From NCBI GenBank assembly GCA_026388015.1, contig JAPLKO010000053.1:7352-71351 (forward strand): DNA of 64,000 bases, written 5' to 3'. The stretch comes from Candidatus Firestoneibacteriota bacterium (GTDB lineage: Bacteria; Oederibacteriota; D2-FULL-39-29). Position numbers and translations under genes: made by a program. This document shows, piece after piece, positions 19,895 to 52,805 of the stretch. Each line of letters begins with the position of its first letter. Positions within the stretch are counted from its first letter, which is position 1. The notes beneath the pieces are model-generated. The model was not told the origin of the DNA and did not search any database. It saw only the letters and a program-made list of their open reading frames with translations.

Positions 19895-19899
19895 GATAA

Positions 19900-21651: not shown

Positions 21652-21655
21652 TAAA

Positions 21656-21704: not shown

Positions 21705-21871
21705 TTTATAGTGATAGAGTGACTATATATTGTGATACGACGCGCGCAACCATATAGTAAGTATTATTCTGTAATGCTTATTTTGGTTTGACAAATGCAG
21801 ATAAAACACCAAAAATACAATAATATTGACAGGTAAAAACAAATCCTATATAATGTGAAAGGTGGTACAAT

Positions 21872-22522
21872 ATGTCGGAATCTAAGAATTGTATATTAAG
21901 GCTTTGCAGATACAGACGGACCTTGAAAGATCTTAAAGAACTGGGATATGTGAAGATCTTTTCGGATAATCTCGGAGAAGCAACCGGTGTTACCGCCGCC
22001 CAGGTAAGGAAGGATTTTTCGCTCTTCGGTATTTCCGGAAATAAAAAGGGCGGCTATCTGATTGATAACCTTATCGAGAAGATAAATTCAATACTCGGCA
22101 AAGATGAAGTGCAGAAAGTTATCATGGTGGGTGCCGGAAATCTTGGCAGCGCTCTTGCCCGGTACCGAGGTTTTGAAAAAGAGGATATTGATATAGTTGC
22201 CGCGTTTGATGCCGATCCGGCCAAACAGGGTAAAATAAACAATATTCAGGTTTATCCGATAAAGGATGTTTTTGAATATGTCAGAAACAACAAGGTGCGA
22301 GTGGCTGTTCTTGCGGTTCCTGCAACAGTGGCTCAGGAAGTAAGCGAGATCCTTGTGTCCGCGGGAATAAAAGGAATTCTAAATTTTGCGCCGGTTACTT
22401 TGCGGGTGCCGGAAAGGATGGTAATAAATAACGTCAGTCTGGCTATAGAGCTGGAGAACGTTATCTACTATGTTAATGCTAGAGCGCGCGGCGAAAAACA
22501 AAAAAACGAGATTAACCCTTAA
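21872..22522 (+). CDS. rex: Redox-sensing transcriptional repressor Rex
   Basis: N-terminal winged helix (RLCRYRRTLKDLKELGYVKIFSDNLGEATGVTAAQVRKD) and a Rossmann fold VIMVGAGNLGSAL. A TTGACA-17-TATAAT promoter sits at about 21827-21855. Confidence 0.9.
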   Translation: MSESKNCILRLCRYRRTLKDLKELGYVKIFSDNLGEATGVTAAQVRKDFSLFGISGNKKGGYLIDNLIEKINSILGKDEVQKVIMVGAGNLGSALARYRGFEKEDIDIVAAFDADPAKQGKINNIQVYPIKDVFEYVRNNKVRVAVLAVPATVAQEVSEILVSAGIKGILNFAPVTLRVPERMVINNVSLAIELENVIYYVNARARGEKQKNEINP

Positions 22523-22642
22523 ACACCAAGACTCCCGTCTCTCTTTTTATTTTGTAAACATTCGCAGGTTTTCCTTCGGCAATTTCCTTTCAAATAAAAT
22601 AACTGTCAAATCAGATTTCATATTTTCAAAAGGAGCGTTACT

Positions 22643-25849: not shown

Positions 25850-25850
25850 C

Positions 25851-27638
25851 ATGGAAAAGAAAATGATTAACCTCATAATTGACGGAATAGCGGTTAAAGT
25901 ATCTGAAGATTCAACGGTTATGCAGGCTGCGGATTCGGTCGGTATTCATATTCCGAGACTTTGTTACCATCCGAGACTTTCAAGTGTCGGCGCCTGCCGG
26001 GTGTGCGTTGTTGAAGTAGACGGCGCAAAAAACTTTCCGGCATCCTGTGTTACCGCGGTATTTGAAGGGATGAAAGTAAAAACAAATACTCCCGCCATAA
26101 GGGAAGCAAGAAGGGATGTTGTTGAGTTAATCTTGGATAATCATCCGAAGGAATGTCAAATCTGCGAGCGGAACAACAATTGCGAACTGCAGCAGCTCGC
26201 AACCACCCTCGGGGTGGAGGATTATTTTTACGCCGGCGAAAGAAAACAGTTCCCGATAGACAGCTCTTCTTGTTCTATCGTGAGAGACCCTGATAAGTGT
26301 ATCCTTTGCGGAAAATGCGTAAGGGTTTGTTCCGAGATTCAGGGCGTCAATGCGCTTTCCATATCTGCGAGAGGCTATAAAACCAATGTAGGTCCCGCTT
26401 ATAATATGGATATGAAAGACAGCGTTTGCATTAACTGCGGACAGTGTACGCTGGTTTGTCCCACCGCAGCGCTTACGGAAAAAGACGGCATTAAGGAAAC
26501 GTTTAAAAATCTGAGTAATCCGGATAAAGTATGTATAGTTCAGATTGCCCCGGCGGTAAGAGTTGCAGTCGGCGAGGCGTTTGGTTTTGCTCCCGGTACG
26601 GATAAAACATACGAGATGGTGACAGCTCTCAGAATGATGGGTTTTAAAGTTGTTTTCGACACCCAGTTCTCGGCGGACCTTACCATAATAGAAGAAGGTC
26701 ACGAGTTCATAAAAAGACTTACAACAGGCGGAAAACTTCCGATGTTCACCTCCTGTTCTCCGGGGTGGATCAAGTATCTGGAAACGTTCCATCCTGAGTT
26801 TATTGAAAATGTGTCTACCTGCAAATCACCGCAACAGATGATGGGTGCGTTAATAAAGACTTTCTATGCAAAAAAAGTCGGAATTGATCCCGCAAAGATT
26901 TTCTCTGTTTCCATAATGCCTTGCACGGCAAAAAAATATGAGTGTGCAAGGCCGGAGATGAATTCGAGCGGCTTTAGAGATGTTGACGTAGTGCTCACGA
27001 CCAGAGAACTTGCGAAGATGATAAAACAAGCCGGAATAAAATTCACGGAATTGAAGAAGGGTGAGTTCGATGAACCCCTGGGTGAATCAACGGGTGCTGC
27101 TCCTATCTTTGGCGTTACCGGCGGAGTAATGGAAGCGGCCCTGCGTACTGCGTATGAAGTTATAACAAAAAAAGAGCTCCCTTCTATTGATTTTAAAGAT
27201 GTCAGAGGCTTAAACGGCATCAGGGAAGCGATAGTGGATGTGGCCGGCACTAAAGTAAGCGTTGCCGTGGTAAACGGTCTGGCGAATGTGCACAAGCTCC
27301 TGACGGAAATAAAAGAAGGAAAACGTAAATATCACTTTGTGGAAGTTATGACTTGCCCCGGAGGTTGTATCGGCGGCGGCGGGCAGATCTATCCTCAGGG
27401 AGATATTGAAGCGATGGATAAAAATCTTTACACTCAGCGGTCCGACGGGCTTTATGATATTGATGAAAAGAAAAAGCTCCGAAAGTCTCACGAGAATCCG
27501 CATATAACGGCTGTCTATAAAGAATTTTTACAGAAACCGCTTGGAGAGCTTTCACACAAATTACTTCATACGCATTATCACAAGGCCTGCCCGAAAGGCG
27601 TGCCGTCGGAAGTCAGAGATACCGTGAGCATCGGTTAA
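25851..27638 (+). CDS. Second [FeFe]-hydrogenase catalytic subunit, paralog of hndD. The start is at the internal ATG 25851; the ORF track starts at 25809, overlapping the upstream gene.
   Basis: H-cluster motifs TSCSPGWIKY, MPCTAKKYE and EVMTCPGGCIGGGGQ. A GGAGG RBS lies before 25851. Confidence 0.9.
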   Translation: MEKKMINLIIDGIAVKVSEDSTVMQAADSVGIHIPRLCYHPRLSSVGACRVCVVEVDGAKNFPASCVTAVFEGMKVKTNTPAIREARRDVVELILDNHPKECQICERNNNCELQQLATTLGVEDYFYAGERKQFPIDSSSCSIVRDPDKCILCGKCVRVCSEIQGVNALSISARGYKTNVGPAYNMDMKDSVCINCGQCTLVCPTAALTEKDGIKETFKNLSNPDKVCIVQIAPAVRVAVGEAFGFAPGTDKTYEMVTALRMMGFKVVFDTQFSADLTIIEEGHEFIKRLTTGGKLPMFTSCSPGWIKYLETFHPEFIENVSTCKSPQQMMGALIKTFYAKKVGIDPAKIFSVSIMPCTAKKYECARPEMNSSGFRDVDVVLTTRELAKMIKQAGIKFTELKKGEFDEPLGESTGAAPIFGVTGGVMEAALRTAYEVITKKELPSIDFKDVRGLNGIREAIVDVAGTKVSVAVVNGLANVHKLLTEIKEGKRKYHFVEVMTCPGGCIGGGGQIYPQGDIEAMDKNLYTQRSDGLYDIDEKKKLRKSHENPHITAVYKEFLQKPLGELSHKLLHTHYHKACPKGVPSEVRDTVSIG

Positions 27639-28303: not shown

Positions 28304-29080
28304 TTGAAAAACCGTTTGATAAGCATATATAATATAGTAATGAAGATGAATTTATCTGTAACCGAGAAAAAAATATACAAAAGGCAGATAATGCTTTTTG
28401 GAGAGAAAGGGCAGAAAAACCTTAAAAAATCAACTGTTTTTATAGTTGGTGCCGGAGGCCTTGGAAGCGCTGCTGCTTTTTACCTTGCCGGGGGCGGAGT
28501 CGGGAGAATCATAATTGTTGACTCCGATAAAGTGGAGCTTTCAAATCTCAACCGGCAGATACTGCATGGATTTAGAAGGGTAGGAAAAAACAAAGCGCTC
28601 TCGGCGCAAACTACACTTCGAGCCTTAAACGGTAATATTAAAATTGAGTCTGTCACAGAAAGAATAACGGCTGCAAATATTGATAAATACGCAGGCAAGG
28701 CGGATCTCCTTCTTGATTGTCTGGATAATTTTGAGACGAGGTTTGTACTTAACGAATACGCATTTAAAAATAAAAAGCCTCTTATTTTTGGAGCCATCTT
28801 CGGGTATTTTGGTCAAATTGCCTTTATAAGACCCGGAAAAAGTTTTTGTCTGGCTTGTCTCTTTGAAGGTTCACCGGCAAAAGGAGTTTTTCCGGTAGTA
28901 GGCGCAACCCCAGGTGTTATCGGTTCGCTTCAAGCTATGGAAGCGATAAAATATCTTTCGGGTGCCGGCAGTAATCTGAACAGCGAGCTTTTGACGTGGA
29001 ACGGGTTGAAGCAGGAGTTCCGTAAGGTAAAATTTAAAAGAAATTCACACTGCAAAGTATGCAGGAAGGAAAAAAAATGA
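28304..29080 (+). CDS. ThiF/MoeB/HesA-family E1-like adenylyltransferase. The true start is possibly the Met at about 28340-28346.
   Basis: Nucleotide-binding loop VFIVGAGGLGSAAAFYLAGGGVGRIIIVD. C-terminal CLAC...CKVC zinc motif. Confidence 0.8.
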   Translation: MKNRLISIYNIVMKMNLSVTEKKIYKRQIMLFGEKGQKNLKKSTVFIVGAGGLGSAAAFYLAGGGVGRIIIVDSDKVELSNLNRQILHGFRRVGKNKALSAQTTLRALNGNIKIESVTERITAANIDKYAGKADLLLDCLDNFETRFVLNEYAFKNKKPLIFGAIFGYFGQIAFIRPGKSFCLACLFEGSPAKGVFPVVGATPGVIGSLQAMEAIKYLSGAGSNLNSELLTWNGLKQEFRKVKFKRNSHCKVCRKEKK

Positions 29081-30444
29081 GTTTTATAGATGAAGCAAGG
29101 ATACTTAAGGTCCTCGAAAAAACCAAAGAACCTGATGTTAAGCTGGCTGAAAGTGTTATTAACAAAGCCAAAGAAAGAAAAGGCCTGAATCTCGAAGAGG
29201 TCGGAGTGCTTATAAATCTTAAGGACCCGCGCCTTCTTAAAGAGATGTTCGACACAGCTGCTAAAATTAAAGAGGAGATCTACGGCGAACGGCTTGTTTT
29301 TTTCGCGCCGCTTTACGTTTCTGATTTTTGCGTGAACGACTGCGCCTACTGTAATTTTCATCAGACGAACAAATCTCTAAAGCGGAGCAAGCTTACGCTT
29401 GAACAGGTGAGAGAGCAGGTTAAAATACTTATCAACATGGGGCATAAGAGAGTGCTTCTTGAGTTCGGCGAAGATCAAAAAGAAAACCCTATCGATTATG
29501 TTGTTGATGTGATAAATGAGATCTATAAAGTGAAAACGGAAAAAGGAAGCATCCGCAGGGTTAATGTAAATATTGCCGCAACGACCGTGGAAAACTACAA
29601 AAAAATAAAAGCGACGAACATCGGGACGTATCAACTGTTTCAGGAAACGTACCACCGCCCTACATATGAAAAACTGCATAAAGGTCCTAAAGGTGATTAT
29701 GACAGACAGCTTACAGCCCAGGATAGAGCGCTTGAAGCGGGGATTGATGACAGAGGCCTCGGAGTTCTCTTCGGACTTTATGATTGGAAGTTTGAAGTGC
29801 TCGGGCTTATTGCCCATGCGGAGCATCTTGATAAAGTCGGCGGTGTCGGGCCGCATACCATATCCGTACCAAGGCTCTGTGAAGCGCCTACGGTAAAATA
29901 CATTCCGGAGCACCCTGTATCAGATGAAGATTTTTTAAAGATAATTGCCATACTTCGTCTTGCTGTCCCGTACACCGGTATGATAATATCGACCCGAGAA
30001 ACTCCCGAGATTAGAAGAAAAGCTTTTAAGATCGGTATCTCCCAGACTTCCGCAGCTTCGGTAACTTCTACCGGCGGTTATGGAAAGAAGATGGATTCCG
30101 TACAATTCACTTCGCATGATCCGAGAAGTCTTGAAGAAGTGATCAAGGATGCACTGAAAGACAAGCTTTTACCGTCCTTTTGCACCGCCTGCTACCGTTT
30201 GGGCAGGACGGGAGAGGATTTTATGTATCTTTCCAAACCCGGAGAAATCCATAAGTTCTGCCGCACGAACGGTCTCCTGACTTTTGCGGAGTACCTTGAA
30301 GATTTTGCTTCGGAAGAGTTGAAAAAAGAAGGTTATAATGTTATCAGGTACTACATGGATAAAATTGACGAACCGGAACTTCTTCAAAGAGCAAAAGAAG
30401 GATTAGCAAATATCAGACAAGGGAAAAGAGATATTTATTACTAG
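29059..30444 (+). CDS. hydG: [FeFe]-hydrogenase maturase HydG (radical SAM tyrosine lyase). The start is likely the Met at 29077.
   Basis: Radical SAM CVNDCAYC near the N-terminus, plus the HydG-specific C-terminal auxiliary cluster motif CTAC-x22-C (Cx2Cx22C). The 461-aa length is too long for ThiH. Confidence 0.8.
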   Translation: MQEGKKMSFIDEARILKVLEKTKEPDVKLAESVINKAKERKGLNLEEVGVLINLKDPRLLKEMFDTAAKIKEEIYGERLVFFAPLYVSDFCVNDCAYCNFHQTNKSLKRSKLTLEQVREQVKILINMGHKRVLLEFGEDQKENPIDYVVDVINEIYKVKTEKGSIRRVNVNIAATTVENYKKIKATNIGTYQLFQETYHRPTYEKLHKGPKGDYDRQLTAQDRALEAGIDDRGLGVLFGLYDWKFEVLGLIAHAEHLDKVGGVGPHTISVPRLCEAPTVKYIPEHPVSDEDFLKIIAILRLAVPYTGMIISTRETPEIRRKAFKIGISQTSAASVTSTGGYGKKMDSVQFTSHDPRSLEEVIKDALKDKLLPSFCTACYRLGRTGEDFMYLSKPGEIHKFCRTNGLLTFAEYLEDFASEELKKEGYNVIRYYMDKIDEPELLQRAKEGLANIRQGKRDIYY

Positions 30445-40124: not shown

Positions 40125-41702
40125 ATGAAGATAAAAGTCAATCTATCAAAGCGCAAACGGATAATGCAACGGTCAAAAAAGCTCGGGCATTGTATTTGTG
40201 ACCCGAAAAAGCATTGTCCTTGTGATGTCTTTATGAAAAAAGGGCTTTGTCCCTGCGCGGGTGAACGTCCGGAGCCGACCGATATTTCCAATATTCAGCT
40301 TACCAAACTTGTACATAATGCAGGCTGTGCTTCAAAAATTCCTGCTTCAGACCTTGAAGCTCTTCTTGCAAGGTTACCTGTAGTTTCTGATTCGGCTATT
40401 ATTTCAGGGCTGGCGGCAGGTGATGATGCGGCTGTCTATAAAATAAACGACACAACAAATCTTGTTCAGACCGTAGATGTATTTACCCCCTGTGTTGATG
40501 ATCCGTATGCTTTCGGAAAAATCTGCGCCTGTAACTGCCTTTCGGATATATACGCAATGGGTGGAGTGCCCCGTACGGCTTTAAGTATTCTGGCTTTTCC
40601 GGTTGAAACTCAGGATAAAGAGATAATGTACTTGATGCTAAAAGGCGCTATGGAAGTGCTGCAGGAGGCCGGATGCAGTTTGCTCGGCGGCCACAGTATA
40701 AAAGATGAGGAGATAAAACTTGGTTTTGCAATTACAGGTACTATTGATACGGGAAAATCGGTATCTCTTGAAACAGCAGTTGATGGCGACGTGTTGGTGC
40801 TGACCAAACCTATAGGAACAGGCGTGTTAACATTTGCAAATCAGATAGAGCGCAAAAATGAAAGAGGAGTTGCAGCGGCGGAAATTTCAATGATGACTCT
40901 AAATAAAGCGGCTGCGGAGGCTATGATTGCAACCGGAGTTTCGGCCTGTACGGATATAACCGGGTTTGGTTTGTACGGGCACCTGGCTCGCATGATGCGC
41001 CATTCAAAAACTTCGGCAAGAATATTTACAAACACTCTGCCTGTTTTTGAAGGGGCACTTGAACTTTTAAAGGAAGGGGTGATTCCCGGGGCGAACGAAA
41101 GAAATGCCGAGTTCGTCGGGGAAGATCTTCTTGCCGGAAAAACTGTCAGTGAAGAGTATAAAAATATCGGATTTTCTTCCGAAACATCAGGCGGGTTGCT
41201 TATCTCAGTGCCTGAAAATAAATATAAAACCCTTGCAGCTGAACTAAAAGAGCGTAATGTTACTTTTGCTGTTATCGGAGAGGTCTTTTCCGGCAAGCCG
41301 GGAGTTATAAAACTTGATAATATCAAAGGCAAAGGAGAAGAGATGAAACATCAAAAAAAAGAGGAAAAAGGTTGTTGCTGTTCGGAGTCTGATTGCGCAG
41401 AGGCCGGAATGAGCGCCGGAGGAACGAGTACGGTTCCTGCCTCCATAAAAGCATTTGGCGAGCTTCTTGCTTCTGTAACTGCAACTGGGAAAATTGATAA
41501 ACGCGTAAAAGAGCTGATTGTTTTTTCTCTTGTGGTTCTACAGCGCTGTGAGTCCTGTGTTGATTTGCATTATACAAAAGCCCTCGGTATGGGTATCACA
41601 AAAGAAGAGCTTGACGAGGCTGCCTGGTGCGCTATTTTGATCGGCGGCGCTCCTGTAAAAATGTGCTATGCGACTTTTTTGAGCAAACGTAACAGCAAAT
41701 AG
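40125..41702 (+). CDS. selD: Selenide, water dikinase (selenophosphate synthetase, Cys type) with an N-terminal Cys-rich extension and a C-terminal AhpD/CMD-like CxxCxxxH domain
   Basis: SelD core: LVHNAGCASKIP aligns with the E. coli HGAGCGCKISP region, on an AIR-synthase-like fold. N-terminal extension HCICDPKKHCPCDVFMKKGLCPCAG. C-terminal about 125 aa carry CESCVDLH, the AhpD-type CxxCxxxH. Confidence 0.8.
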   Translation: MKIKVNLSKRKRIMQRSKKLGHCICDPKKHCPCDVFMKKGLCPCAGERPEPTDISNIQLTKLVHNAGCASKIPASDLEALLARLPVVSDSAIISGLAAGDDAAVYKINDTTNLVQTVDVFTPCVDDPYAFGKICACNCLSDIYAMGGVPRTALSILAFPVETQDKEIMYLMLKGAMEVLQEAGCSLLGGHSIKDEEIKLGFAITGTIDTGKSVSLETAVDGDVLVLTKPIGTGVLTFANQIERKNERGVAAAEISMMTLNKAAAEAMIATGVSACTDITGFGLYGHLARMMRHSKTSARIFTNTLPVFEGALELLKEGVIPGANERNAEFVGEDLLAGKTVSEEYKNIGFSSETSGGLLISVPENKYKTLAAELKERNVTFAVIGEVFSGKPGVIKLDNIKGKGEEMKHQKKEEKGCCCSESDCAEAGMSAGGTSTVPASIKAFGELLASVTATGKIDKRVKELIVFSLVVLQRCESCVDLHYTKALGMGITKEELDEAAWCAILIGGAPVKMCYATFLSKRNSK

Positions 41703-41714
41703 GAGAAGAGTTTA

Positions 41715-42947
41715 ATGCCGGAATGTAAAAAGAATAAATGTTGCGCCGACATAAAAAAAGATGAGACTGCCGATTGTCCTATAAATTATTTCCAGAACCA
41801 GGTGGAGAATTCACTGGATTATGCAGAGTCTATGAAAGCTGAAGGAGCCAAAATTGTCGGTATTATGTGTGAATACACTCCGCGTGAGTTAATCATGGCG
41901 GCAGGGGGTGTGCCGGTGTGTCTTTGCGGAGGTTCAGTCGAGATGGTTGAGCCGGCGGAAAAGGTTTTGCCTGCGAATCTATGCCCTTTAATAAAATCCA
42001 CGTTTGGCTTTAGTCTTTTGAAAGAAAACCCTTTTCTGGAAATGTCAGATCTTCTTGTTGCCGAAATCACTTGTGACGGGAAGAAAAAGATGTATGAACT
42101 TTTAGCAAAGATGCATCCTTTGCACGTGCTTGAACTTCCGCAAAAACCGGAGGATAAAGACGCTTTCAAGCACTGGGTGGCGGAACTTAACAAATTGAAA
42201 ACCGCACTGGAACAAAGATTTTCTGTTAAAATCACTGCTAAAAAATTAAAAGAAGCTGTCCGGGTTATGAACAGGGAAAGAAAATTAAAACGAGAACTGG
42301 CAGCTCTTATGAAATCCGATAATCCGCCGCTTACGGGCCGTGAACTTCTTGATATGAAAAGTTTGATCTCCGGAATGCCCGAGGATTTTAAGCAGTATGA
42401 GAAAGCCTTGAAAATGCTTCCGGGTAGAAAGATTAAACCTGCCGCGGGCAAAAGAGTAAGAGTGCTTTTGACCGGAGTCCCTATGCCTCATGGAGCGGAG
42501 AGGGTTATGGATATCCTTGAAGAAAACGGCGGGCTGGTGGTTTGCCAGGAAAACTGTACCGGGTTAAAACCGATTTTAGAGGATGTCAAAGAGAATACGG
42601 GGGATCTCCTTACAGCAATTGCCAAAAAATATTTTAATATACCCTGTTCTGTTATGACGCCGAACAAGAAAAGACTTGTTCAAATCAAACAGCTTGCGGC
42701 AGAATATAAAGCTGATTGCGTTATTGAAGTTATCTGGCGCACCTGTATAACTTATGATGTGGAGTCTGTGCTGGTCAAAAAAATGACGGAAGAGGAGTTA
42801 AACCTCCCATATTTAAAAATTGAAACTGATTACTCGCCTTCTGACACTGCCCGTATAGCGCTAAGAGTGCAGGCATTATATGAGACTGTCAAAGGCAGAA
42901 AGAGTTCCGGAAGATTTGAAAAGAAAAAAACAAGAAAGGGAAGATAA
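41715..42947 (+). CDS. HgdB/BcrC-family protein (2-hydroxyacyl-CoA dehydratase-like / double-cubane-cluster protein type)
   Basis: Cys-rich N-terminus. About 410 aa. It is translationally coupled to a BadF/BadG/BcrA/BcrD-type activase downstream. The family call is by architecture and memory. Confidence 0.55.
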   Translation: MPECKKNKCCADIKKDETADCPINYFQNQVENSLDYAESMKAEGAKIVGIMCEYTPRELIMAAGGVPVCLCGGSVEMVEPAEKVLPANLCPLIKSTFGFSLLKENPFLEMSDLLVAEITCDGKKKMYELLAKMHPLHVLELPQKPEDKDAFKHWVAELNKLKTALEQRFSVKITAKKLKEAVRVMNRERKLKRELAALMKSDNPPLTGRELLDMKSLISGMPEDFKQYEKALKMLPGRKIKPAAGKRVRVLLTGVPMPHGAERVMDILEENGGLVVCQENCTGLKPILEDVKENTGDLLTAIAKKYFNIPCSVMTPNKKRLVQIKQLAAEYKADCVIEVIWRTCITYDVESVLVKKMTEEELNLPYLKIETDYSPSDTARIALRVQALYETVKGRKSSGRFEKKKTRKGR

Positions 42948-43723
42948 TGTATTTTGCCGGAGTGGATGCGGGATCCCGCACTATAAAAGTGGTAATTATT
43001 AAAGGGTCTGATTTAACCGTTTCCGGTTTCGGTATTGTTGATCAAGGGGTAAGACAGGCAGTTAAAGCAAAGGAGCTCCTTGATAAAGTAATCCGTAACT
43101 CAAAAATAAAAATTAAAGATATCGGAGGAATTGTTGCCACGGGTTACGGAAGGAACGCTTTAAGCTGGGCGGACAGTAAAGTAACCGAGATCACCTGTCA
43201 GGCGTATGGAGTAAAGCAGGAAATACCCAATGCTCGTATGATAATTGACATCGGTGGACAAGATAGTAAAATAATTCATCTGGACTCAAATGGTATCGTC
43301 AACGATTTTGTTATGAATGACAGGTGCGCAGCCGGAACAGGCCGTTTTCTTGAAGTTGTTGCGGATAGGCTTGAAATAAAACTTAAGGATATCGGCAGAT
43401 ATTCGGATAAAGCCGCATCTCCTTCGAAAATAAGCAGTATGTGTGTAGTTTTTGCTGAAGCCGAAATAGTGGGCCTTCTTGCTGCTGAAGAAGCCCCGGA
43501 AAATATTTTGGCCGGGGTTCAAAACTCTATTGCAAAACGTATATGCATTATGGCCGGTTCAGGTTTTAAAGGGCCGGTTGTTTTTACCGGAGGCGTTGCG
43601 CTTCTTCCCGGCATGAAAAAAGCGCTTCAGGACTGTTTGGAGCATTCTATAAACGTTGTAAAGACTCCGCAATTTACCGGAGCTTTTGGCGCGGCCTTGC
43701 TGGCGGCAAAAGATAAATATTAA
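42947..43723 (+). CDS. BadF/BadG/BcrA/BcrD-family ATPase (HgdC-like activase / CoA-substrate-specific enzyme activase)
   Basis: N-terminal YFAGVDAGSRTIKVVII actin-fold phosphate-1 motif. Length is 258 aa. Its start overlaps the upstream stop (TAATG). Confidence 0.7.
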   Translation: MYFAGVDAGSRTIKVVIIKGSDLTVSGFGIVDQGVRQAVKAKELLDKVIRNSKIKIKDIGGIVATGYGRNALSWADSKVTEITCQAYGVKQEIPNARMIIDIGGQDSKIIHLDSNGIVNDFVMNDRCAAGTGRFLEVVADRLEIKLKDIGRYSDKAASPSKISSMCVVFAEAEIVGLLAAEEAPENILAGVQNSIAKRICIMAGSGFKGPVVFTGGVALLPGMKKALQDCLEHSINVVKTPQFTGAFGAALLAAKDKY

Positions 43724-43831
43724 GCAGTTAATAAAAAATAGTATATAATATATCTGTTATCATAGAAAAAGCCTTGTTGTAATTTAAGCAATTGTGAAAT
43801 ATTTCTAAATAGATTATTAGGGAGGTGTTTA

Positions 43832-45316
43832 GTGCCTGGTGACGCTCGCAGTCTTCAAAACTGTCGCGGGACTGATAAGGTTCCGGGTGGGTTCAATTCC
43901 CATACACCTCCGCCAATTTCAGAGTTACTGAAAAAGATCCCTTCCGTTTCGCTGCTTTTGGAAACATTGGAACTCCAAAAGTTGTCAAAAAGATTCGGCG
44001 GCGAGATACTTAAATCGGAGCTTCGCCTGCTTCTTGAAGAGTTAAGGAATAAGATTAAAAACGGTAAAAGCTGCGGTATTCCGGAAATAAATAAAATAAC
44101 GGAACAGCTCGAGACCCGCCTGACACGTTTTACCTCTCCCGAAGGAAGAAGAGCTATTAATGCTACAGGAATACTACTCCATACGGGACTTGGTCGTTCA
44201 CCTTTATGCAGTGAAGCCCTCGAAGCGCTTGCAGGAATGGGGACGTACTCTCTTTTACAAGCTGACCTTGCGTCGGGAAAACGCTCGTTGCGCGAGGAAA
44301 AAATAGAAAGGATGCTTATCCGGCTGACCGGATGTGAAGCCGCAACCGTAGTAAATAATAATGCGGCGGCTACCATGCTCATTTTAAATACCTTAGCGGC
44401 CGGAAAAAAAGTTATTTTAAGCCGGGGCCAGCTTATTGAAATAGGCGGAGAGTTCCGCATGCCGGATGTGATGGCGAGAAGTTCCGTCATTATGCAGGAG
44501 ATCGGGACCACTAACCGGACGCACCTTAAGGATTACGAGAAGGCTATTGATGAAAATACGGGCGCTCTTTTACACGTGCATACTTCGAATTTCCGTGTAC
44601 GGGGCTTTTCCGGAACTCCGGACATTAAAGAACTTTGCAGTTTAGCAAAAAAATATAATCTTCCGGTAATTGACGATTTAGGGAGCGGAGCTCTGGTACC
44701 GCTTTCAAGATACGGCATTACAGATGAGCCTCTGGTTTCTGATTCGATAAAGGCCGGGAGTTCCGTAATATGTTTTAGCGGAGATAAGCTTATCAACGGA
44801 CCCCAGGCCGGAATAATTTGCGGGAAAAAAGAGTTTATTCAAAACATCAGAAAAAATCCGTTTGCCCGGATGTTTCGTGTTTGTAAGCTTACGCTTGCGG
44901 CGCTCGAGGCAACACTTGTGCATTTTGTAAACGATACACAGGGTGAAGCGCTTCCATTTTATAAGATGTTGACGATCTCTGCTCAAAATCTCGAGAAAAA
45001 AGCAAAACTGCTTGCTGATTTGGCCGGAAAGATTAAAGGGGTTAAAGCAAAAATAATAGATGATGTGTCTTATGTCGGCAGCGGTTCACTCCCGGATGAA
45101 GGAATACCGACGAAGGTTGTGTGTGTCAGCTTTGATAACGCAAACAAAAGTAAAAAGAGTATAGAAGAAATTGCAATATGCCTGAGGCTCGGAGTTCCGT
45201 CGGTTTTTTGCAGAGTAAAAGATGATGCGCTGTATTTTGATATGCGGACGTTATTTGACAAAGAGGAGAGGGAAATAGCAGAAGCATTAAGCAGTGTTAT
45301 GAAGGGTTGCTCCTGA
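43832..45316 (+). CDS. selA: L-seryl-tRNA(Sec) selenium transferase, with a GTG start
   Basis: PLP-lysine region CFSGDKLINGPQAGIICGKKEF. N-terminal INATGILLHTGLGRS. Confidence 0.85.
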   Translation: MPGDARSLQNCRGTDKVPGGFNSHTPPPISELLKKIPSVSLLLETLELQKLSKRFGGEILKSELRLLLEELRNKIKNGKSCGIPEINKITEQLETRLTRFTSPEGRRAINATGILLHTGLGRSPLCSEALEALAGMGTYSLLQADLASGKRSLREEKIERMLIRLTGCEAATVVNNNAAATMLILNTLAAGKKVILSRGQLIEIGGEFRMPDVMARSSVIMQEIGTTNRTHLKDYEKAIDENTGALLHVHTSNFRVRGFSGTPDIKELCSLAKKYNLPVIDDLGSGALVPLSRYGITDEPLVSDSIKAGSSVICFSGDKLINGPQAGIICGKKEFIQNIRKNPFARMFRVCKLTLAALEATLVHFVNDTQGEALPFYKMLTISAQNLEKKAKLLADLAGKIKGVKAKIIDDVSYVGSGSLPDEGIPTKVVCVSFDNANKSKKSIEEIAICLRLGVPSVFCRVKDDALYFDMRTLFDKEEREIAEALSSVMKGCS

Positions 45317-47247
45317 TGCCGGAGTATAAAATCAAAACCCCGGAAATTATACCGGTTATGATAGGTACAGCCGGTCATGTTGATCACGGTAAAACAGCTC
45401 TTGTTCGACTGCTTACGGGTTGCGAGACGGATATCCTGCCGGAAGAAAAAAAAAGAGGAATGAGCATAGACTTGGGGTTCGCGCCGTTTTTGCTGGACGA
45501 TAACAGGATGGCGGGGATTATCGATGTGCCCGGTCATGAAGATTTTATCAGGAACATGATTGCTGGCGCCTCATCCATAGATGTTCTTATTCTTATTATT
45601 GCGGCGGATGACGGGGTGATGCCCCAGACGATAGAACACCTGAAGATAATGAGCTTGCTTCAAACTCCTGAGGTTATGGCCGTAATTACCAAGATAGATA
45701 TAGTGGGTAAAGAGCGGCAGCAGGAAGTAAGTAACCAGGTTCATGAATTACTCAAAGAGTACGGTTTTTCCGGAGTTCCTGTTATTTTGGAATCGAATAT
45801 AACGGGGGAGGGGCTCGGAGAGGTCAGAGAAGAGGTAAATAAGCTGGTGTGCCGTATTCAGCGTCCAAAGGAGACAAAACCTTTCAGGATGAATATCGAA
45901 AGAGTTTTTTCGGTGAAAGGTTACGGTACGGTGGTTACGGGTATTCCTCTTTCAGGAAAATGCGTTATAGATGAGGAACTGGAGCTCTTGCCGGGTCCTC
46001 ATAGCGTAATCTGCCGCTCTATCCAGAAGTACAGTGTGGATTCTTCCGATGCGACTGCTCATGCCTGCTCAGCTATTAATCTGAGAGCGGCAAAACTACC
46101 TGAGATTGAACGCGGGATGACGCTCGCTTCGACCGGAGTCTATAGGAAAACTGTTTCAGCGGTTTTAAGTATAAAAAATGTTCATGAGTCGTTGCCGCTT
46201 AAACGGCGACAGGAACTGCGTTTTTGTTGCGGGACTTCCAACAGAATAGTTTTGAGTGTGTTGCTTGGAAAAAATGAAGTTTTGTCTCCGGGAGAGAATG
46301 GTTTTATACAGATAAAACTTTCCGAACCTGTCGTTTTAGCGGCCGGCGACAGGTTTATTTTAAGAACTCTCTCTCCTTCTGCGACAGTAGCAGGAGGCGT
46401 GGTTCTTTCTGCAAATCCTCCGGAAGGGAAGAAAAAAGCAAAAGTTGACACCGTTAAACTGGAAAAGGCGCGCATAGCTGCAGAGCAAGGCGACTATTTT
46501 TTTAGTGAAATTATAGCAGGTGGTTTTTCCGTGATAAACAAAAATGAGCTTGCTTTTCTTGTTCAGGAAGACGAAGAAAGCATAAAAATTGCAATTGAGG
46601 AGAAGATTAAAGCCGGCGTACTTATACCTGCCGGTAAAACACAGTGGATTATCAAAGACCGTATAGTTGAACTTGAAGAAAAATTAAGATTCTTGTTAAC
46701 GGCATATCACAAAGAAAATAAGATTTCTCGCGGCATGCCTTTTGCCGGGGTGTGCTCTTTTTTAGGGCTGGATAAAGAAAGCTATCCGGATTTGAGTAAA
46801 ATATTTGCCGGAAGCGGAGTTCTTTCGGTGCAAAGTGACTGTGTTTCTTTGAAAAGTTTTGCCGTTGAAATGACCGCAAAACAAAAGAATATCAGGGAAA
46901 AGATTATAGGGATGCTTTCGAAAGCCGAGAACTCCGCTGTAGCGCTCAATACTATTGAAGCTGAACTTAAAGTTGATATGCCTGAACTCAGGATTGTTAT
47001 GCGTTTTTTAACAGAAGAAGGGGTGATATATACTCTGGATAAATATGTAATTTTTTCTAAGGTAGTTATTAACGCTCTGGATAAGTTAAAGGAGCATTTT
47101 AAAAACGAAAGTACGGTTGAGTTGAGCCATTTTAGGGAGCTGACCGGACTTTCCAGGAATGTAGCCGTACCTGTTCTCGAATATTTTGATTCAAAAGGTA
47201 TAACGTGTCGAGAGGGAAAAGCTCGCAGGCTTGCAAATAAGAGTTAA
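45307..47247 (+). CDS. selB: Selenocysteine-specific translation elongation factor
   Basis: GTPase G1 motif GTAGHVDHGKT and G3 motif DVPGHE. Long C-terminal winged-helix extension; 646 aa. It overlaps the selA 3' end by 10 nt. Confidence 0.88.
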   Translation: MLLMPEYKIKTPEIIPVMIGTAGHVDHGKTALVRLLTGCETDILPEEKKRGMSIDLGFAPFLLDDNRMAGIIDVPGHEDFIRNMIAGASSIDVLILIIAADDGVMPQTIEHLKIMSLLQTPEVMAVITKIDIVGKERQQEVSNQVHELLKEYGFSGVPVILESNITGEGLGEVREEVNKLVCRIQRPKETKPFRMNIERVFSVKGYGTVVTGIPLSGKCVIDEELELLPGPHSVICRSIQKYSVDSSDATAHACSAINLRAAKLPEIERGMTLASTGVYRKTVSAVLSIKNVHESLPLKRRQELRFCCGTSNRIVLSVLLGKNEVLSPGENGFIQIKLSEPVVLAAGDRFILRTLSPSATVAGGVVLSANPPEGKKKAKVDTVKLEKARIAAEQGDYFFSEIIAGGFSVINKNELAFLVQEDEESIKIAIEEKIKAGVLIPAGKTQWIIKDRIVELEEKLRFLLTAYHKENKISRGMPFAGVCSFLGLDKESYPDLSKIFAGSGVLSVQSDCVSLKSFAVEMTAKQKNIREKIIGMLSKAENSAVALNTIEAELKVDMPELRIVMRFLTEEGVIYTLDKYVIFSKVVINALDKLKEHFKNESTVELSHFRELTGLSRNVAVPVLEYFDSKGITCREGKARRLANKS

Positions 47248-47348
47248 CTTTTCAAGGTCTAAATTGCAAGTGAGCTGTTTCCGTCTTAAGAATTTCATTG
47301 CCACAGTCTAATTAATGGTGAGTACAGAAATTCAGAATGCAGTTTTTC

Positions 47349-47378
47349 TTGACAGTAAATACGTTCTTATGCTATATT
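47349..47378 (+). promoter_or_regulatory. Sigma70-like promoter: TTGACA, 18-nt spacer, TATATT
   Basis: Read directly, upstream of the ilv leader. Confidence 0.45.
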
Positions 47379-47383
47379 CTGAT

Positions 47384-47482
47384 ATGCTTACTATAAAGGA
47401 AAATAAGTTCCAACCAAAAGGAGAGTTTCTTACCTCTTTGTTTTCTTTATTGGTAGTAAGCGTTTTGGTAGTAGTGGGCTGA
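47384..47482 (+). CDS. Putative ilv attenuator leader peptide (32 aa): MLTIKENKFQPKGEFLTSLFSLLVVSVLVVVG
   Basis: Short ORF ending in a Val/Leu run, 125 nt upstream of ilvD. The stop codon is embedded in the hairpin GTGGGC-TGAC-GCCCAC. An in-frame TTG with an AAGGAGAG RBS gives a shorter alternative (FSLLVVSVLVVVG). Confidence 0.5.
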   Translation: MLTIKENKFQPKGEFLTSLFSLLVVSVLVVVG

Positions 47483-47607
47483 CGCCCACATCTAATCCTA
47501 CATAATATAATACCCCCAAAAAACAAGCAAAACCTGAATTATATTAGATATTAGCAATGGTTTTTGATATAATCTAATTTGAAGCAGACTAAATACTAGG
47601 AGGAGCT

Positions 47608-49284
47608 ATGCGTAGTGATGCTATGAAGAAAGGCCTGGAAAAGGCGCCGCACCGTTCGCTTTTTAAGGCTTGCGGATACACAAATGAAGAGATTCAAAGG
47701 CCCATGATAGGTATCGTTAACTCCGCAAATGAGATAATTCCGGGGCACGTTCACCTTGATAAAATTACAGAGTCCGTAAAGAAAGGCGTTTTAATGGCAG
47801 GCGGGACGCCTATTGAGTTCGGAGTCATCGGGATTTGCGACGGTATAGCGATGAACCACGACGGAATGAAGTACTCCCTTCCGAGCCGCGAGGTTATTGC
47901 GGATTCTATTGAGTGCGAATGTATGGGACATCCTTTTGACGGGCTTGTCTTTGTACCGAATTGCGACAAGATAATTCCCGGAATGCTTATGGCGGCTGCA
48001 AGGTTAAATGTGCCTTCTATCTTTATTAGCGGCGGGCCTATGCTTGCGGGTGTAAGTAACGGAGTTAAGACGGACCTTGTGAAAGGAATGTTTGAAGGTG
48101 TCGGAAAAGTAAAAGCCGGCGAGATGACTATGGCAGAGCTGGACAAACTCGAAGATGTGGCGTGTCCGGGTTGCGGTTCATGCGCCGGAATGTTTACGGC
48201 TAATTCTATGAACTGCATAACAGAGGCTCTTGGTATGGGTCTTCCCGGTAACGGAACCATCCCTGCGGTTTACGCCGAAAGGTTACGGCTGGCGAAGTAT
48301 GCCGGTATGGAGATACTTGAGATAGTAAAGAAAAATATTAAGCCCCGCGATATTATGACGATGAAGGCGTTCGAAAATGCCATTACCGTTGATATGGCGT
48401 TTGGTGGTTCGTCTAACACTGCGCTTCACTTACTTGCGGTCGCTTCGGAGGCGGGAATAAATCTCGACCTGAAGAAGTTCGACGATATCAGTAAAAAAAC
48501 AAAATATATCTGCTCCTTATCTCCGGGCGGACCTCACTTCCTGGAAGATTTATATTTTGCAGGCGGGATCCCTGCGCTATTAAAAGTGTTGGCAGAGAAC
48601 AAAAGACTTCATCTAGACTGCAAGACTGTTTATGGAAAAAAGATAGGAGATGTGGTAAAAGGGGCAGAGGTGAAAAATTCAGATGTTGTGCGCCCCTGGA
48701 AAAACCCTTACAGACAAGAAGGTGGTATGGCAGTACTTTACGGGAATATTGCAAAAGGCGGATCTATAGTAAAACAGTCCGCTGTTTCCCCCGATATGAT
48801 GAAACATATAGGTTCTGCAAAGGTTTTCGACTCCGAGCAGAATACGATCAAAGCAATTCTCGGCGGCAAGATTGTTAAGGGTGATGTTATAGTCGTTCGT
48901 TATGAGGGACCGAGAGGCGGGCCGGGAATGCAGGAGATGCTTTCTCTCACCGCGGCGGTTGCCGGTATGAAAATTAAGGACGTTGCTTTGATTACTGACG
49001 GAAGATTTTCCGGCGGGACGAAAGGCGCCTCCATCGGACACATCTGTCCCGAAGCTGCAGACGGCGGCGAGATTGCAGTAATAAAAGACGGGGATATTAT
49101 AGAGATGGATATTCCAAACAGAGTACTTCGGGTAAAGCTTTCGGATAAAGAGCTGAAAGATCGGCTGGCAAAATGGGTAAAGCCGAAACCGAAAGTGACC
49201 TCCGGGTATTTGGCAAGATACGCAAAGATGGTCACCCCTTCAAATCAGGGGGCAATATTTAAGAAAGAGATTTGTGATTTATAA
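47608..49284 (+). CDS. ilvD: Dihydroxy-acid dehydratase
   Basis: [16 protein letters not shown] Fe-S motif. Length is 558 aa. Confidence 0.92.
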
Positions 49285-49329
49285 AAAAAATTATTTTATT
49301 CCGCATAAGTGCGGGACAGGGAGCTTAAA

Positions 49330-51018
49330 ATGAAGAAAAAAGGTGCAGAAATATTAATAGAATGTCTGGAAAGAGAAGGCGTTGATATTGTTTGGGGAAT
49401 ACCCGGAGGACAGGCCATCCCTATCTTTGATGCGCTTTTTGACAGCAAAAAAATAAAGTTAGTGCTGACAAGACACGAACAGGGCGCAGCTCATATGGCT
49501 GACGGTTATGCAAGGGCTACGGGAAAGATCGGGGTTTGCGTGGCTACTTCGGGACCCGGGGCTACGAATTTGGTGACCGGACTTGCAACTGCATATATGG
49601 ATTCCATTCCCATGATTGCAATTACGGCGCAGGTACCGACGAAGCTTATAGGTAACGATGCTTTTCAGGAAGCGGATGTTGTGGGTATTACTCGACCGAT
49701 TACAAAACATAATTATCTGGTAAAAGATGTCAAAGAGCTGGCAAGAACCGTCAGAGAGGCTTTTCATATTGCGACTACAGGAAGAAAGGGTCCGGTTCTT
49801 ATAGACCTTCCGTCGGATGTGGCAAAGACGGAAACCGAATTTGAATGGCCGGATAAAATTGTAATGAAGAATTACAGCCCTAATTATAAAGGTAATCCAA
49901 GCCAGATAAAAAAAGCAGCCGAAGAGATAAGTAATTCAAAAAAACCGTTTATTTATGCGGGCGGCGGTATACTTTCTTCCGGAGCGAGTAAGGAGTTGAA
50001 AGCTTTTGCCGAAAAAACCGGCGCTCCCGTCGGACTTACTATGCTTGGCCTGGGATGTTTTCCGGGAACGCACAGCCAGTTTGTGGGGATGCTTGGCATG
50101 CACGGAACCAGGGCTTCTAATCTGGCAATGAACGAGTCTGATCTTATTGTTGCTGTCGGAGCAAGATTTGACGATAGGGTTACCGGCAATCTTGCGCATT
50201 TTGCAAAAAAGGCAAAGATAATTCATATTGATATAGACCCGTCTTCTATCAGCAAAAGTGTTAAGGCGGATATTCCTATTGTAGGAGATGCGAAGAGCGT
50301 GCTTCCGGAACTCACCAAACAGGTCCTTCAAAGGAAACATTCCGAGTGGTGGGCCAAAATAGGCGAATGGCAGAAAAGTTTCCCTCTTCTTTATTCAAGA
50401 AAAGGCGCTCTTAAGCCACAGTATGTTATTGAGCAGATTTATGAAATGACCAAAGGCAAGGCGATAATCGTGACGGAAGTAGGCCAACATCAGATGTGGG
50501 CCGCACAATTCTATAAATACGACGCACCCAGGACATTTATCTCGTCCGGCGGACTCGGGACAATGGGGTTCGGACTCCCTGCTTCTATAGGCTCTCAGTT
50601 TGGAAAGCCGAATTCGCTCGTTTTTGATATTTCCGGAGACGGCTCTATTCAGATGAATATTCAGGAACTTATTATTGCGGTAGAGCATAAACTACCGATT
50701 AAAATAGTAATATTGAACAACGGCTATCTGGGGATGGTTCGTCAATGGCAGCAGCTTTTTTGGAAAAAGCGCTACTCGGGAGTGGATCTTTCTATACAGC
50801 CCGATTTTGTTAAACTTGCAGAGGCCTACGGCGCAGTCGGCATGAGAGTTACCAAAGAAGAAGAAGTGAAAGAAGCTCTTGAAAAGGCTATTAAAATTAC
50901 CGACAGACCGACGTTGATTGATTTTAAGGTTGCCCCGGAAGAAAATGTGCTCCCCATGGTGCCTGCAGGCGCAGCTATAACAGAAGCGATAGATTACAAG
51001 GATGTGGAACTAGCATAA
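49330..51018 (+). CDS. ilvB: Acetolactate synthase large subunit (TPP-dependent). The ORF track starts at 49309.
   Basis: TPP-enzyme N-terminus GAEILIECLEREGVDIVWGIPGG. TPP-binding region GDGSIQMNIQEL...NNGYLGMVRQWQ. Confidence 0.9.
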   Translation: MKKKGAEILIECLEREGVDIVWGIPGGQAIPIFDALFDSKKIKLVLTRHEQGAAHMADGYARATGKIGVCVATSGPGATNLVTGLATAYMDSIPMIAITAQVPTKLIGNDAFQEADVVGITRPITKHNYLVKDVKELARTVREAFHIATTGRKGPVLIDLPSDVAKTETEFEWPDKIVMKNYSPNYKGNPSQIKKAAEEISNSKKPFIYAGGGILSSGASKELKAFAEKTGAPVGLTMLGLGCFPGTHSQFVGMLGMHGTRASNLAMNESDLIVAVGARFDDRVTGNLAHFAKKAKIIHIDIDPSSISKSVKADIPIVGDAKSVLPELTKQVLQRKHSEWWAKIGEWQKSFPLLYSRKGALKPQYVIEQIYEMTKGKAIIVTEVGQHQMWAAQFYKYDAPRTFISSGGLGTMGFGLPASIGSQFGKPNSLVFDISGDGSIQMNIQELIIAVEHKLPIKIVILNNGYLGMVRQWQQLFWKKRYSGVDLSIQPDFVKLAEAYGAVGMRVTKEEEVKEALEKAIKITDRPTLIDFKVAPEENVLPMVPAGAAITEAIDYKDVELA

Positions 51019-51152: not shown

Positions 51153-51656
51153 ATGAAACATACAATATCGGTATTGGTAGAGAATAAGCCGGGGGTGCTG
51201 GCGCGGGTAGTGGGGCTGTTTTCCGGCAGGGGCTTTAATATAGAGAGTTTGACCGTCGGGGAGACGGAGGATGTTTGTGTCTCCAGGATGACCATTGTGG
51301 TCGGCGGGGATGATATGATTTTGGAGCAGGTGAGCAAGCAGCTTAACAAGCTTGTCGATATAATAAAAGTAATAGATATGACTGAAAAGCAGTTCATTAA
51401 TCGCGAGCTTGCGCTTATCAAGGTGGCAGTTAACTCCGGAAACCGCGGAGAGGTAATACAGGTGGTAAACATTTTTCGGGGAAAGGTTGTAGACATAAGT
51501 TCTAAAACCTTTACCGTAGAAGTGACAGGCTCCGACGACAAGATAAATGCACTTATAGAGATCCTGTTGCCTTTTGGAATCAAAGAGATGGTGCGCACCG
51601 GCGCCGTAGCAATAAATCGCGAATGGCAGAAAGAAGAAACCAAGAAAAATAAATAA
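51153..51656 (+). CDS. ilvN: Acetolactate synthase small (regulatory) subunit, ACT domain
   Basis: MKHTISVLVENKPGVLARVVGLFSGRGFNIESLTV ACT signature. Confidence 0.9.
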   Translation: MKHTISVLVENKPGVLARVVGLFSGRGFNIESLTVGETEDVCVSRMTIVVGGDDMILEQVSKQLNKLVDIIKVIDMTEKQFINRELALIKVAVNSGNRGEVIQVVNIFRGKVVDISSKTFTVEVTGSDDKINALIEILLPFGIKEMVRTGAVAINREWQKEETKKNK

Positions 51657-51841: not shown

Positions 51842-52750
51842 ATGAAAAGAACAATAGTTGCGGTATTTGCTCTTGTTTTATTGTTTTCAGCGGGTTTTCC
51901 TGCGGCATCAAGATTCCAAACGGAGCTTCAAAAAAAAGCAGATGCATTTTCTTCCGAAAGACCGCTCTTGCTCCTGGCCTTCGATACGACAAGAGAAAAA
52001 AAAGAAGAATATACAACTGAAGTTTTTATACCTGATACGTCTTTTATGGGGAAAGTAAAAAAGTTTTTTACAAGAAAAGATTCGGGAAAATACAAAACCG
52101 AGACCATTATAAGAGATGTAAAAGTAACAGACCGGCTTAAGCTCTATAGCGAGAGTAAAAGAAAAATGCTGGAGGTGCTGGAGGTTTCCCCATCGGATAT
52201 TTATGTAAAAAGCAAGCGCATTTTTGACGGCGGTGACTTCTGGGATATAAAAAGAAAGGCAGGAAGCTCTATTGGTAAGATTAGCGTTGATTTTATTGCA
52301 GCAAGCGTTCTTCCGGACTGGTATTATATGCATAAAAAATATATTAAAGACGCCATGGAAATTGAAGAAAAGGTTGATGGAGTGACTTACAGGCTTATCA
52401 AAGGAAAAATGCGGTATTACATTAACAAAGACACTTGTCTGCCGGCGATAATTGAGTATGACGCCACGGAAAAGGAAAAAAAGGTGGTTAATAAAGTAGT
52501 TTTTGGCCCGGGCACTTTTAAACAGGGCAAGAGTGATATAGTAAGTAAAGTGTCTGTCTACAAAAACAACAAGCTGATCAAGAAGTACAATGTTTCGGTT
52601 CTAAATACGGTCGAGATGCTCAAAGACCAGGTCTTTGATCCTGAAACGCAAACAAGAGAAGTCAACAGACCGACTCAAAAAAGAAAAGTACCCGGTGAAA
52701 AAACAAATGAAAAGGTAAAGGATGTAAGAGCGGAGGAAATAAAAGAATAA
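51842..52750 (+). CDS. Hypothetical secreted protein. The ORF track starts at 51791.
   Basis: Signal peptide MKRTIVAVFALVLLFSAGFPAA. No recognisable family. Confidence 0.45.
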   Translation: MKRTIVAVFALVLLFSAGFPAASRFQTELQKKADAFSSERPLLLLAFDTTREKKEEYTTEVFIPDTSFMGKVKKFFTRKDSGKYKTETIIRDVKVTDRLKLYSESKRKMLEVLEVSPSDIYVKSKRIFDGGDFWDIKRKAGSSIGKISVDFIAASVLPDWYYMHKKYIKDAMEIEEKVDGVTYRLIKGKMRYYINKDTCLPAIIEYDATEKEKKVVNKVVFGPGTFKQGKSDIVSKVSVYKNNKLIKKYNVSVLNTVEMLKDQVFDPETQTREVNRPTQKRKVPGEKTNEKVKDVRAEEIKE

Positions 52751-52775
52751 CAAGGCTGCGCAAATAAAGATGTTA

Positions 52776-52805
52776 AGAGCGGCAGTTCTTGCCGCTCTTT
52801 TTTTA
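52776..52805 (+). terminator. Rho-independent terminator: AGAGCGGCA-GTTCT-TGCCGCTCT then TTTTTTT
   Basis: Perfect 9-bp stem plus U-run, read directly. Confidence 0.85.

Follow-up and report, generated by a model that had tools for sequence, protein, structure and literature searches.

In a 64-kb stretch of DNA from a Candidatus Firestoneibacteriota bacterium (the window, to whose positions all coordinates refer) the genes ilvD, ilvB and ilvN are preceded by a short open reading frame (ORF) that becomes rich in valine (Val) and leucine (Leu) codons towards its end and that stops within the loop of a G+C-rich hairpin. The initial annotation had taken this ORF for an unannotated leader peptide upstream of an ilv operon, and comparison with related loci supports this core reading, as the same module is present in six Firestonebacteria lineages. 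The ORF, the stop codon in the hairpin and the promoter in front of both were all present on re-reading, and the three downstream genes have an NCBIfam match each, as expected for ilvD-ilvB-ilvN. Judged from the sequence, it is likely that the ORF encodes a leader peptide tied to the ilv genes and that it constitutes the sensor part of an attenuator. The features of the locus are the following.

47349–47378, plus strand: promoter P1, TTGACA and a TG-extended TATATT separated by an 18-nucleotide (nt) spacer, consensus score 11/12.
47384–47482, plus strand: leader ORF, predicted to be leaderless, 32 codons and TGA, translation MLTIKENKFQPKGEFLTSLFSLLVVSVLVVVG.
47384–47463, plus strand: 5' structured domain according to the predicted fold, with an outer stem, helix H1 and two small inner hairpins.
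47438–47476, plus strand: presumed regulatory codon run, codons 19–31 (L F S L L V V S V L V V V), 6 Val and 4 Leu.
47474–47489, plus strand: hairpin H3, GTGGGC-TGAC-GCCCAC; its loop contains the stop codon of the leader, and a U-tract does not follow.
47490–47543, plus strand: A/C-rich, G-poor unstructured spacer (A27 C13 G2 T12), a candidate Rho-utilisation (rut) tract.
47544–47573, plus strand: ilvD-proximal promoter P2, TTAGAT/TAGATA, a 17–18 nt spacer and a TG-extended TATAAT.
47598–47610, plus strand: Shine-Dalgarno sequence AGGAGG and ATG start of ilvD, read from the sequence.
47608–49284, plus strand: ilvD, dihydroxy-acid dehydratase (NF002068 and TIGR00110, E about 1e-231 or better).
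49309–51018, plus strand: ilvB, acetolactate synthase large subunit (TIGR00118, E = 7.9e-251); the coordinates are those of the longest ORF and the true start may be a few codons further in.
51153–51656, plus strand: ilvN, acetolactate synthase small subunit (TIGR00119, E = 1.5e-65).

The hairpin motif, with GTGGGC at 47474–47479, TGAC at 47480–47483 and GCCCAC at 47484–47489, has its sole match in the window at this site, and the stop codon TGA of the leader (47480–47482) lies inside the loop. Among the 389 ORFs of 20–60 codons that start with ATG on either strand, only the leader ORF has at least five Val within the final 12 residues (6, as compared to 4 in the runner-up), and in 973 kb of fetched loci a small Val-rich ORF with its stop codon in a hairpin loop was found only at Firestonebacteria ilvD leaders. 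The codon run extends up to the penultimate codon of the ORF. The initial annotation had counted 7 Val and 4 Leu in the last 13 residues; the tail is indeed rich in these two amino acids, but the numbers have to be corrected to 6 Val and 3 Leu, or to 6 Val and 4 Leu if the last 14 residues are considered. GTA dominates the Val codons of the run, yet GTA makes up 27% of the Val codons in the genes of the window, and a rare-codon signal was not found in the Val run.

Is this arrangement peculiar to a single locus? The best genome matches, all of them metagenome-assembled genomes (MAGs) of Firestonebacteria, encode IlvD proteins with 86–88% identity (L002, L003 and L004) or 77% identity (L005, L006 and L007), and the Logan contig L001 carries an identical IlvD together with an identical 450-nt upstream region. 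The leader-bearing loci number six, namely the window, L002, L003, L004, L005 (same as L006 and L167) and L007. All six have in common a module that begins with a TTGACA-17/18-TGnTAnnnT promoter, followed by an ATG 5–9 nt past the -10 box, an ORF of 32–36 codons with its stop codon in the loop of a G+C-rich hairpin of 6–8 bp, an A/C-rich spacer of 50–55 nt, another promoter-like element with the sequence TTAGAT-17/18-TGATATAAT or variants of it, and finally the Shine-Dalgarno sequence of ilvD. Since the genes upstream of the module differ between the loci (selB in the window, others elsewhere), the module travels with ilvD. Moreover, the leader ORF is missing in other IlvD loci of the Firestonebacteria clade (L162, L164–L166, L169–L172 and L173), and because several relatives within the clade do without it the leader can be regarded as a discrete module. 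A metagenome scan with the IlvD N-terminus revealed no further Firestonebacteria among the matches listed. In L004 about 150–190 extra nt are located between P2 and ilvD (L004:2460–2614); this stretch contains short repeats (CTAGG... and GTACGAAGTACGAGG) and looks like a repeat element inserted into the 5' untranslated region.

In the six homologous leaders frame 1 is open without exception, and frames 2 and 3 are closed by several stop codons each. From the ATG, which is fixed by the promoter, to the stop codon, which is fixed by the hairpin, the leaders measure 99, 108, 108, 105, 99 and 111 nt, a multiple of three in 6/6 loci despite insertions and deletions. Common to all six peptides is a Val-dominated tail that ends with glycine (Gly) and the stop codon, whereas the N-terminal two-thirds of the peptide are unrelated among the window group, L005 and L007, and within the close pair L002 and L003 the leader has acquired 11 nonsynonymous and 3 synonymous codon changes. 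An alignment of the leader region across relatives, proposed in the initial annotation as a check, thus retains the Val-rich tail, the frame and the RNA helices described below but not the remainder of the peptide. The leader peptide has no match in Pfam, and an exact look-up of the peptides in public protein collections found them mostly absent and never named; gene callers either miss the element or miscall it as a nameless protein of 55 amino acids. The corresponding 55-codon extension from the ATG at 47315 was rejected: its start is upstream of the -35 box of P1, in a region that is conserved as promoter and not as coding sequence. Because the frame and the codon run are kept while the rest of the peptide drifts, the ORF is better read as a regulatory leader than as a functional small protein, and the combination of an open frame, a run of Val, Leu and isoleucine (Ile) codons and an otherwise free peptide sequence appears to be the signature of such a leader.

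How would an ORF that starts so close to a promoter be translated? The -10 box of P1 ends 5 nt before the ATG at 47384 in the window. The geometry of P1, TTGACA-17/18-TGnTAnnnT, is present in 6/6 leader-bearing loci, and in all of them the ATG follows 5–9 nt past the TG-extended -10 box and is not preceded by a Shine-Dalgarno sequence, the sequence upstream being promoter. The other promoters in the window have ordinary 5' untranslated regions. Given this fixed distance of the ATG from a consensus extended -10 box and the constant lack of a Shine-Dalgarno sequence, transcripts from P1 are predicted to begin at or next to the AUG and to be translated as leaderless mRNA. The initial annotation had likewise placed the transcription start essentially at the ATG and had offered two ways out, leaderless translation or the use of an internal TTG start with AAGGAGAG as ribosome-binding site (RBS). 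The comparison favors the former. The internal TTG start was rejected, as GGAGAG is separated from the TTG by 14 nt, the arrangement is not conserved, and GGAGAG constitutes the 5' arm of a small local hairpin in the stretch that is occupied by H2 in the relatives.

In addition, a second conserved promoter, overlooked in the initial annotation, is situated between the leader and ilvD. P2 is present in all leader-bearing loci and is retained in the leader-less locus L162 (about 735–765), and an equivalent promoter precedes ilvD in L164 (about 1455–1485). Since these two loci keep the proximal promoter without the leader, P2 appears to be a genuine ilvD promoter and P1 with the leader a separable add-on. 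Transcription of ilvD via P2 would accordingly be independent of the leader.

Not only the reading frame but also the fold of the leader RNA is conserved. RNAalifold was run on the six leaders, and pair counts were checked against slid partners and against 500 shuffles. Three helices were recovered, H1, the internal hairpin H2 and the stop-codon hairpin H3. H1 pairs codons about 4–8 with codons about 19–23, which corresponds to 47396–47407 and 47437–47448 in the window, where an outer stem (47384–47394 with 47453–47463) additionally pairs the AUG region with the first Val codons. At 47409–47436 the window has two small inner hairpins where the relatives have the single hairpin H2. The single-sequence fold of the window leader beats its shuffles with z = -3.6. 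For H1 and H2 together 85–87% of cells are paired and 7 of 14 pairs have changed on both sides; for H1–H3 overall the values are 90% of cells, as compared to 44–55% with slid partners, and 10 of 20 pairs. Depending on the measure, the observed pairing was reached by 0 or 1 of the 500 shuffles. H3 is 100% paired in the six sequences, with compensatory changes in three of its six pairs, for example TTGGGC/GCCCAA in L004 and GTGGGT/ACCCAC in L005. Searching Rfam at the gathering score yielded tRNAs only in the whole window, and no T-box, leader or riboswitch, and at permissive E-values matches in 47200–47700 were at chance level only (E of 0.8 or more).

The initial annotation had described the locus as the classic layout of ribosome-mediated attenuation. 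This description cannot be upheld, as the locus contains neither an intrinsic terminator nor a conserved alternative of terminator and antiterminator. That a U-rich terminator before ilvD was not apparent had already been noted there, and none was found in the scan or in the folds: 47483–47607 contains no terminator-like site consisting of a hairpin and a U-tract, and the five homologous leaders contain no intrinsic terminator. The run of T in front of ilvD belongs to promoter P2, as its spacer, and does not form the tail of a terminator. Canonical terminators are nevertheless used by this genome, as the next transcription unit is closed by one with an 11-bp stem and T6 at 52775–52799. To represent translating ribosomes in the folding, the six leaders were also folded with the ribosome footprint masked at early Val codons, at the last Val codons or at the stop codon. 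Folding for alternative terminator and antiterminator structures had been recommended initially; in these masked folds no alternative hairpin was conserved across the six leaders. The element therefore has the sensor of a classical attenuator but fails two of the defining features, the terminator and the antiterminator.

What could take the place of the missing switch? The spacer between H3 and P2 contains 13–15 C and 2–6 G in the six loci, and its C-minus-G bias is in the top 0.3–2.5% of windows in each of them. Over the 60 nt at 47483–47542, which begin on the 3' side of H3 and take in the spacer, the bias is matched by only 9e-5 of plus-strand windows. Leader-less relatives have no such excess of C over G upstream of their promoter. 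The spacer is unpaired in every folded state. Its assignment as rut follows from a composition criterion only, and it is accordingly a candidate tract. Two motifs within the spacer are conserved and explained neither by pairing nor by promoter geometry, (Y)UUACAUAC (YUUACAUAC / CUACAUA), which is found 10–25 nt after H3 (47494–47506 in the window, and also in L002, L003, L005 and L007), and CAAAACC about 10 nt before P2. The former is loosely boxA-like. In Escherichia coli, Rho-dependent 3' ends are located just after stable stem-loops that lack a U-tract, with the rut site immediately downstream, and the stem-loop protects the trimmed 3' end at Rho-dependent terminators (PMC6061677). Furthermore, in the tnaC, speFL and cruR systems a ribosome retained at the end of an upstream ORF (uORF) shields the adjacent rut site (PMC12360218). 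Since a hairpin without U-tract followed by a C-rich tract is the layout of a Rho terminator, a Rho-dependent output may be proposed for the Firestonebacteria leader, albeit tentatively and as something short of probable.

Anatomy and conservation together suggest an attenuator that could operate as follows. The strong promoter P1 would start transcription at or within a few nt of the ATG and the 32-codon leader would be translated leaderless. With charged tRNA-Val, tRNA-Leu or tRNA-Ile being scarce, the ribosome would linger on the codon run, and with these tRNAs being plentiful it would reach the stop codon and depart, so that the speed of the ribosome over the run would report the charging of the three tRNAs. 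When amino acids suffice, the ribosome would terminate, H3 would fold, Rho would load onto the spacer and P1 transcripts would end before ilvD. Upon limitation, a ribosome on the terminal Val codons would melt or occupy H3 and the start of the tract and thereby hinder the loading of Rho, whereupon P1 transcripts would read through into ilvDBN and add to the unregulated basal expression supplied by P2. The two-state step that leads to the Rho output is the least supported part of this mechanism.

Several observations weigh against this reading. In the window and in L005 the -10 box is only 5 nt away from the ATG, and a transcription start on T or G could exclude the start codon. P2 allows ilvD to be expressed without the leader, which may limit the regulatory weight of P1. 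The covariation comes from only six independent sequences. A rho gene was not found within the 64-kb window, and no conserved structure that masks the candidate rut tract was seen in the folds. Finally, with a stall at codon 24, the first Val codon, the ribosome would reach only to about 47465 and cover neither H3 nor the spacer; as such a stall shields nothing, the model has to assume that stalling takes place at the last Val codons or that a further feature is involved. Taken as a whole, a leaderless, ribosome-mediated ilv attenuator that senses the supply of branched-chain amino acids and acts through a factor-dependent output appears about evenly poised between right and wrong. The more specific version, a terminator-less attenuator in which a leaderless uORF has its hungry codons abutting the stop codon and a held ribosome blocks Rho on the C-rich tract, is rather unlikely to be correct in all its parts.

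Alternatively, H3 itself could be an intrinsic terminator devoid of a U-tract, the folding of which is blocked by a ribosome on the last Val codons, a mode of occlusion that requires one hairpin and no antiterminator. H3 is stable, fully conserved and covarying, its 5' arm consists of the last two sense codons so that H3 is necessarily opened by a ribosome positioned on the terminal Val codons, and no other conserved hairpin is found downstream. However, H3 comprises only 6 bp and continues into AUCUAAUCC instead of a U run, whereas the operon-end terminator of this genome has the canonical form, with a stem of 11 bp and T6. Moreover, the regulatory sign would be wrong, as under amino-acid sufficiency a ribosome at the stop codon also melts H3 while the RNA polymerase is just downstream, and as a stall at early Val codons leaves H3 free to fold. 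Such a mode of action is improbable.

It could also be imagined that control is exerted on translation, in that the leader RNA of P1 transcripts pairs with the RBS of ilvD and hides it until a ribosome stalls on the Val run and sets it free. Leaderless sensory small ORFs that act by unmasking an RBS have precedent in the polycysteine ORFs of mycobacteria (10.1101/834739), and in several loci the Val run and the stretch directly behind H3 contain short CCU/CCUU motifs. Yet the Shine-Dalgarno sequence of ilvD is 115–270 nt downstream with a promoter in between, and pairing of the leader with it was rejected as a candidate, the complementarities being only 4–6 nt long and not conserved in position. 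Leader-dependent sequestration was not seen in the masked folds either, where the RBS of ilvD pairs only locally and identically in all ribosome states. Translational attenuation is thus very unlikely.

A comparably slight probability is assigned to a structured non-coding leader RNA with a binding site for a protein, a tRNA or a metabolite, or to a small RNA transcribed from P1, with an incidental open frame in either case. Such an RNA would account for the strong covariation in the three helices, for the conserved spacer motifs that lack an explanation, and for the near-identity of AGTAGTCCTTGTAG-GGGCTAA between the divergent loci L002 and L007, which as nucleotide conservation exceeds the needs of the peptide. 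It would not account for a frame that is open with a length divisible by three in 6/6 loci despite insertions and deletions, for an ATG locked to the promoter or for a codon run specific to the products of the pathway, and no Rfam family was matched, T-box included. The least probable explanation is an independent small hydrophobic membrane peptide or type I toxin-like product encoded from P1 to H3 and placed beside ilvD by chance or co-regulation only: the hydrophobicity of the C-terminal 14–19 residues suffices for a short membrane helix, the RNA is highly structured as in type I toxin mRNAs and P2 shows P1 to be dispensable for ilvD, but only the Val-rich tail is conserved while the other two-thirds of the peptide change freely under preserved RNA pairing, the element is found only before ilvD, in six different genomic contexts, and the peptide has neither a Pfam match nor a name in any source.

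How does the proposed ribosome-mediated attenuator compare with known systems? The enterobacterial leaders ilvL (of ilvGMEDA) and ivbL (of ilvBN) are alike in that a peptide of about 32 codons with a dense run of Val, Leu and Ile is encoded upstream of ilv genes, the run of the ivbL peptide being ...VVVVRVVVVVG..., and in the presumed sensing of charged tRNA via the speed of the ribosome. They differ by their Shine-Dalgarno sequence, by a pause hairpin, by antiterminator and terminator hairpins that exclude each other and by the U-tract of the terminator, whereas the Firestonebacteria leader has no Shine-Dalgarno sequence, no terminator with U-tract and no alternative pairing. In the latter, moreover, the stop codon is in the loop of a hairpin and the run extends up to the penultimate codon, and there is no sequence homology to the enterobacterial leaders. 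Leaders in which branched-chain codons precede acetolactate synthase genes are also known from Corynebacterium glutamicum ilvBNC and Mycobacterium tuberculosis ilvB1 (PMC11857589, PMC13236596). In comparison to these actinobacterial ilvB leaders, the Firestonebacteria leader belongs to an unrelated phylum, precedes ilvD and is separated from the operon by an extra promoter. The C. glutamicum leader peptide is reportedly, according to Morbach et al. 2000, made without a ribosome-binding site, and in this respect the Firestonebacteria leader seems to resemble the actinobacterial ilvB leaders more closely than the enterobacterial ones. The actinobacterial ilvB systems, however, possess a Rho-independent terminator with U-tract and an antiterminator (PMC13236596), and the Firestonebacteria leader has neither.

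On the output side the closest likeness is found in tnaC-tnaAB, speFL-speF and cruR-bfrG, where the stop codon of a uORF also adjoins an unstructured C-rich tract and an intrinsic terminator is not present (PMC12360218). These uORFs encode arrest peptides with conserved motifs that sense a free ligand (tryptophan, ornithine or copper) at the stop codon. In contrast, the Firestonebacteria peptide is unconserved, with no arrest-peptide motif shared by the six leaders, which have only the Val-rich tail and the terminal Gly in common; the signal would come from hungry Val, Leu or Ile codons, and a role of Rho would be an assumption made for this locus. The leaderless polycysteine ORFs of mycobacteria ('Cys ribulon') are similar in that a run of cognate codons forms the first cistron of a biosynthetic operon (10.1101/834739). 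They unmask a downstream RBS, whereas no such duplex is found in Firestonebacteria, where a second promoter and a distance of more than 115 nt separate the leader from the RBS of ilvD.

Leader ORFs rich in Ile, Leu and Val but unrelated to the one described here are located 86–110 nt upstream of ilvD in a Desulfobacteraceae MAG (L022) and in five unclassified metagenome contigs (L095, L098, L112, L115 and L118), with peptides such as MNTRLVLVTLILILVLVVVLISDYGAPGMIMA and MKNLFAINNLISLIILLVVDVLICCEAQG. These are probably conventional attenuators. As other lineages have unrelated leader ORFs at this position, leader-peptide control of ilvD seems to be widespread and the Firestonebacteria version to be an independent build.

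The surroundings of the operon contain some further features. Immediately upstream (40125–47247) lies a selenocysteine cluster with a selD-like ORF, tRNA-Sec (43821–43911), selA and selB. The selD-like ORF comprises 525 amino acids, of which the SelD domain covers only residues about 55–397, so that it contains extra sequence, and genes for a double-cubane-cluster reductase and its activase are found between selD and tRNA-Sec. After ilvN, an ORF of about 300 amino acids (51842–52750) encodes an N-terminal signal peptide and has no match in Pfam or NCBIfam. This ORF may be co-transcribed with ilvDBN, and at its end (52775–52805) stands the one strong canonical intrinsic terminator in this region. 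Further away, two tandem sets of genes for a NuoF-like protein and a group A6 NADH-dependent [FeFe] hydrogenase (18152–27638) and hydG (29059–30444), to judge from the gene content, indicate a fermentative anaerobe.

Attenuation by leader peptides is a textbook mechanism that has been worked out in only a few phyla. The Firestonebacteria module adds a well-conserved case from an uncultured candidate phylum, in which the sensor is kept and the switch of terminator and antiterminator is missing. No such hungry-codon system is included in a listing of the known uORF-Rho attenuators (PMC12360218). If the mechanism proposed here is true, the input of classical attenuation would be joined to an output of the tnaC type in a candidate phylum without cultured members. 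Should the Rho-dependent output prove correct, leader peptides that sense starvation can be coupled to factor-dependent termination, and the search for unannotated regulatory small ORFs in metagenomes would have to be cast more widely.

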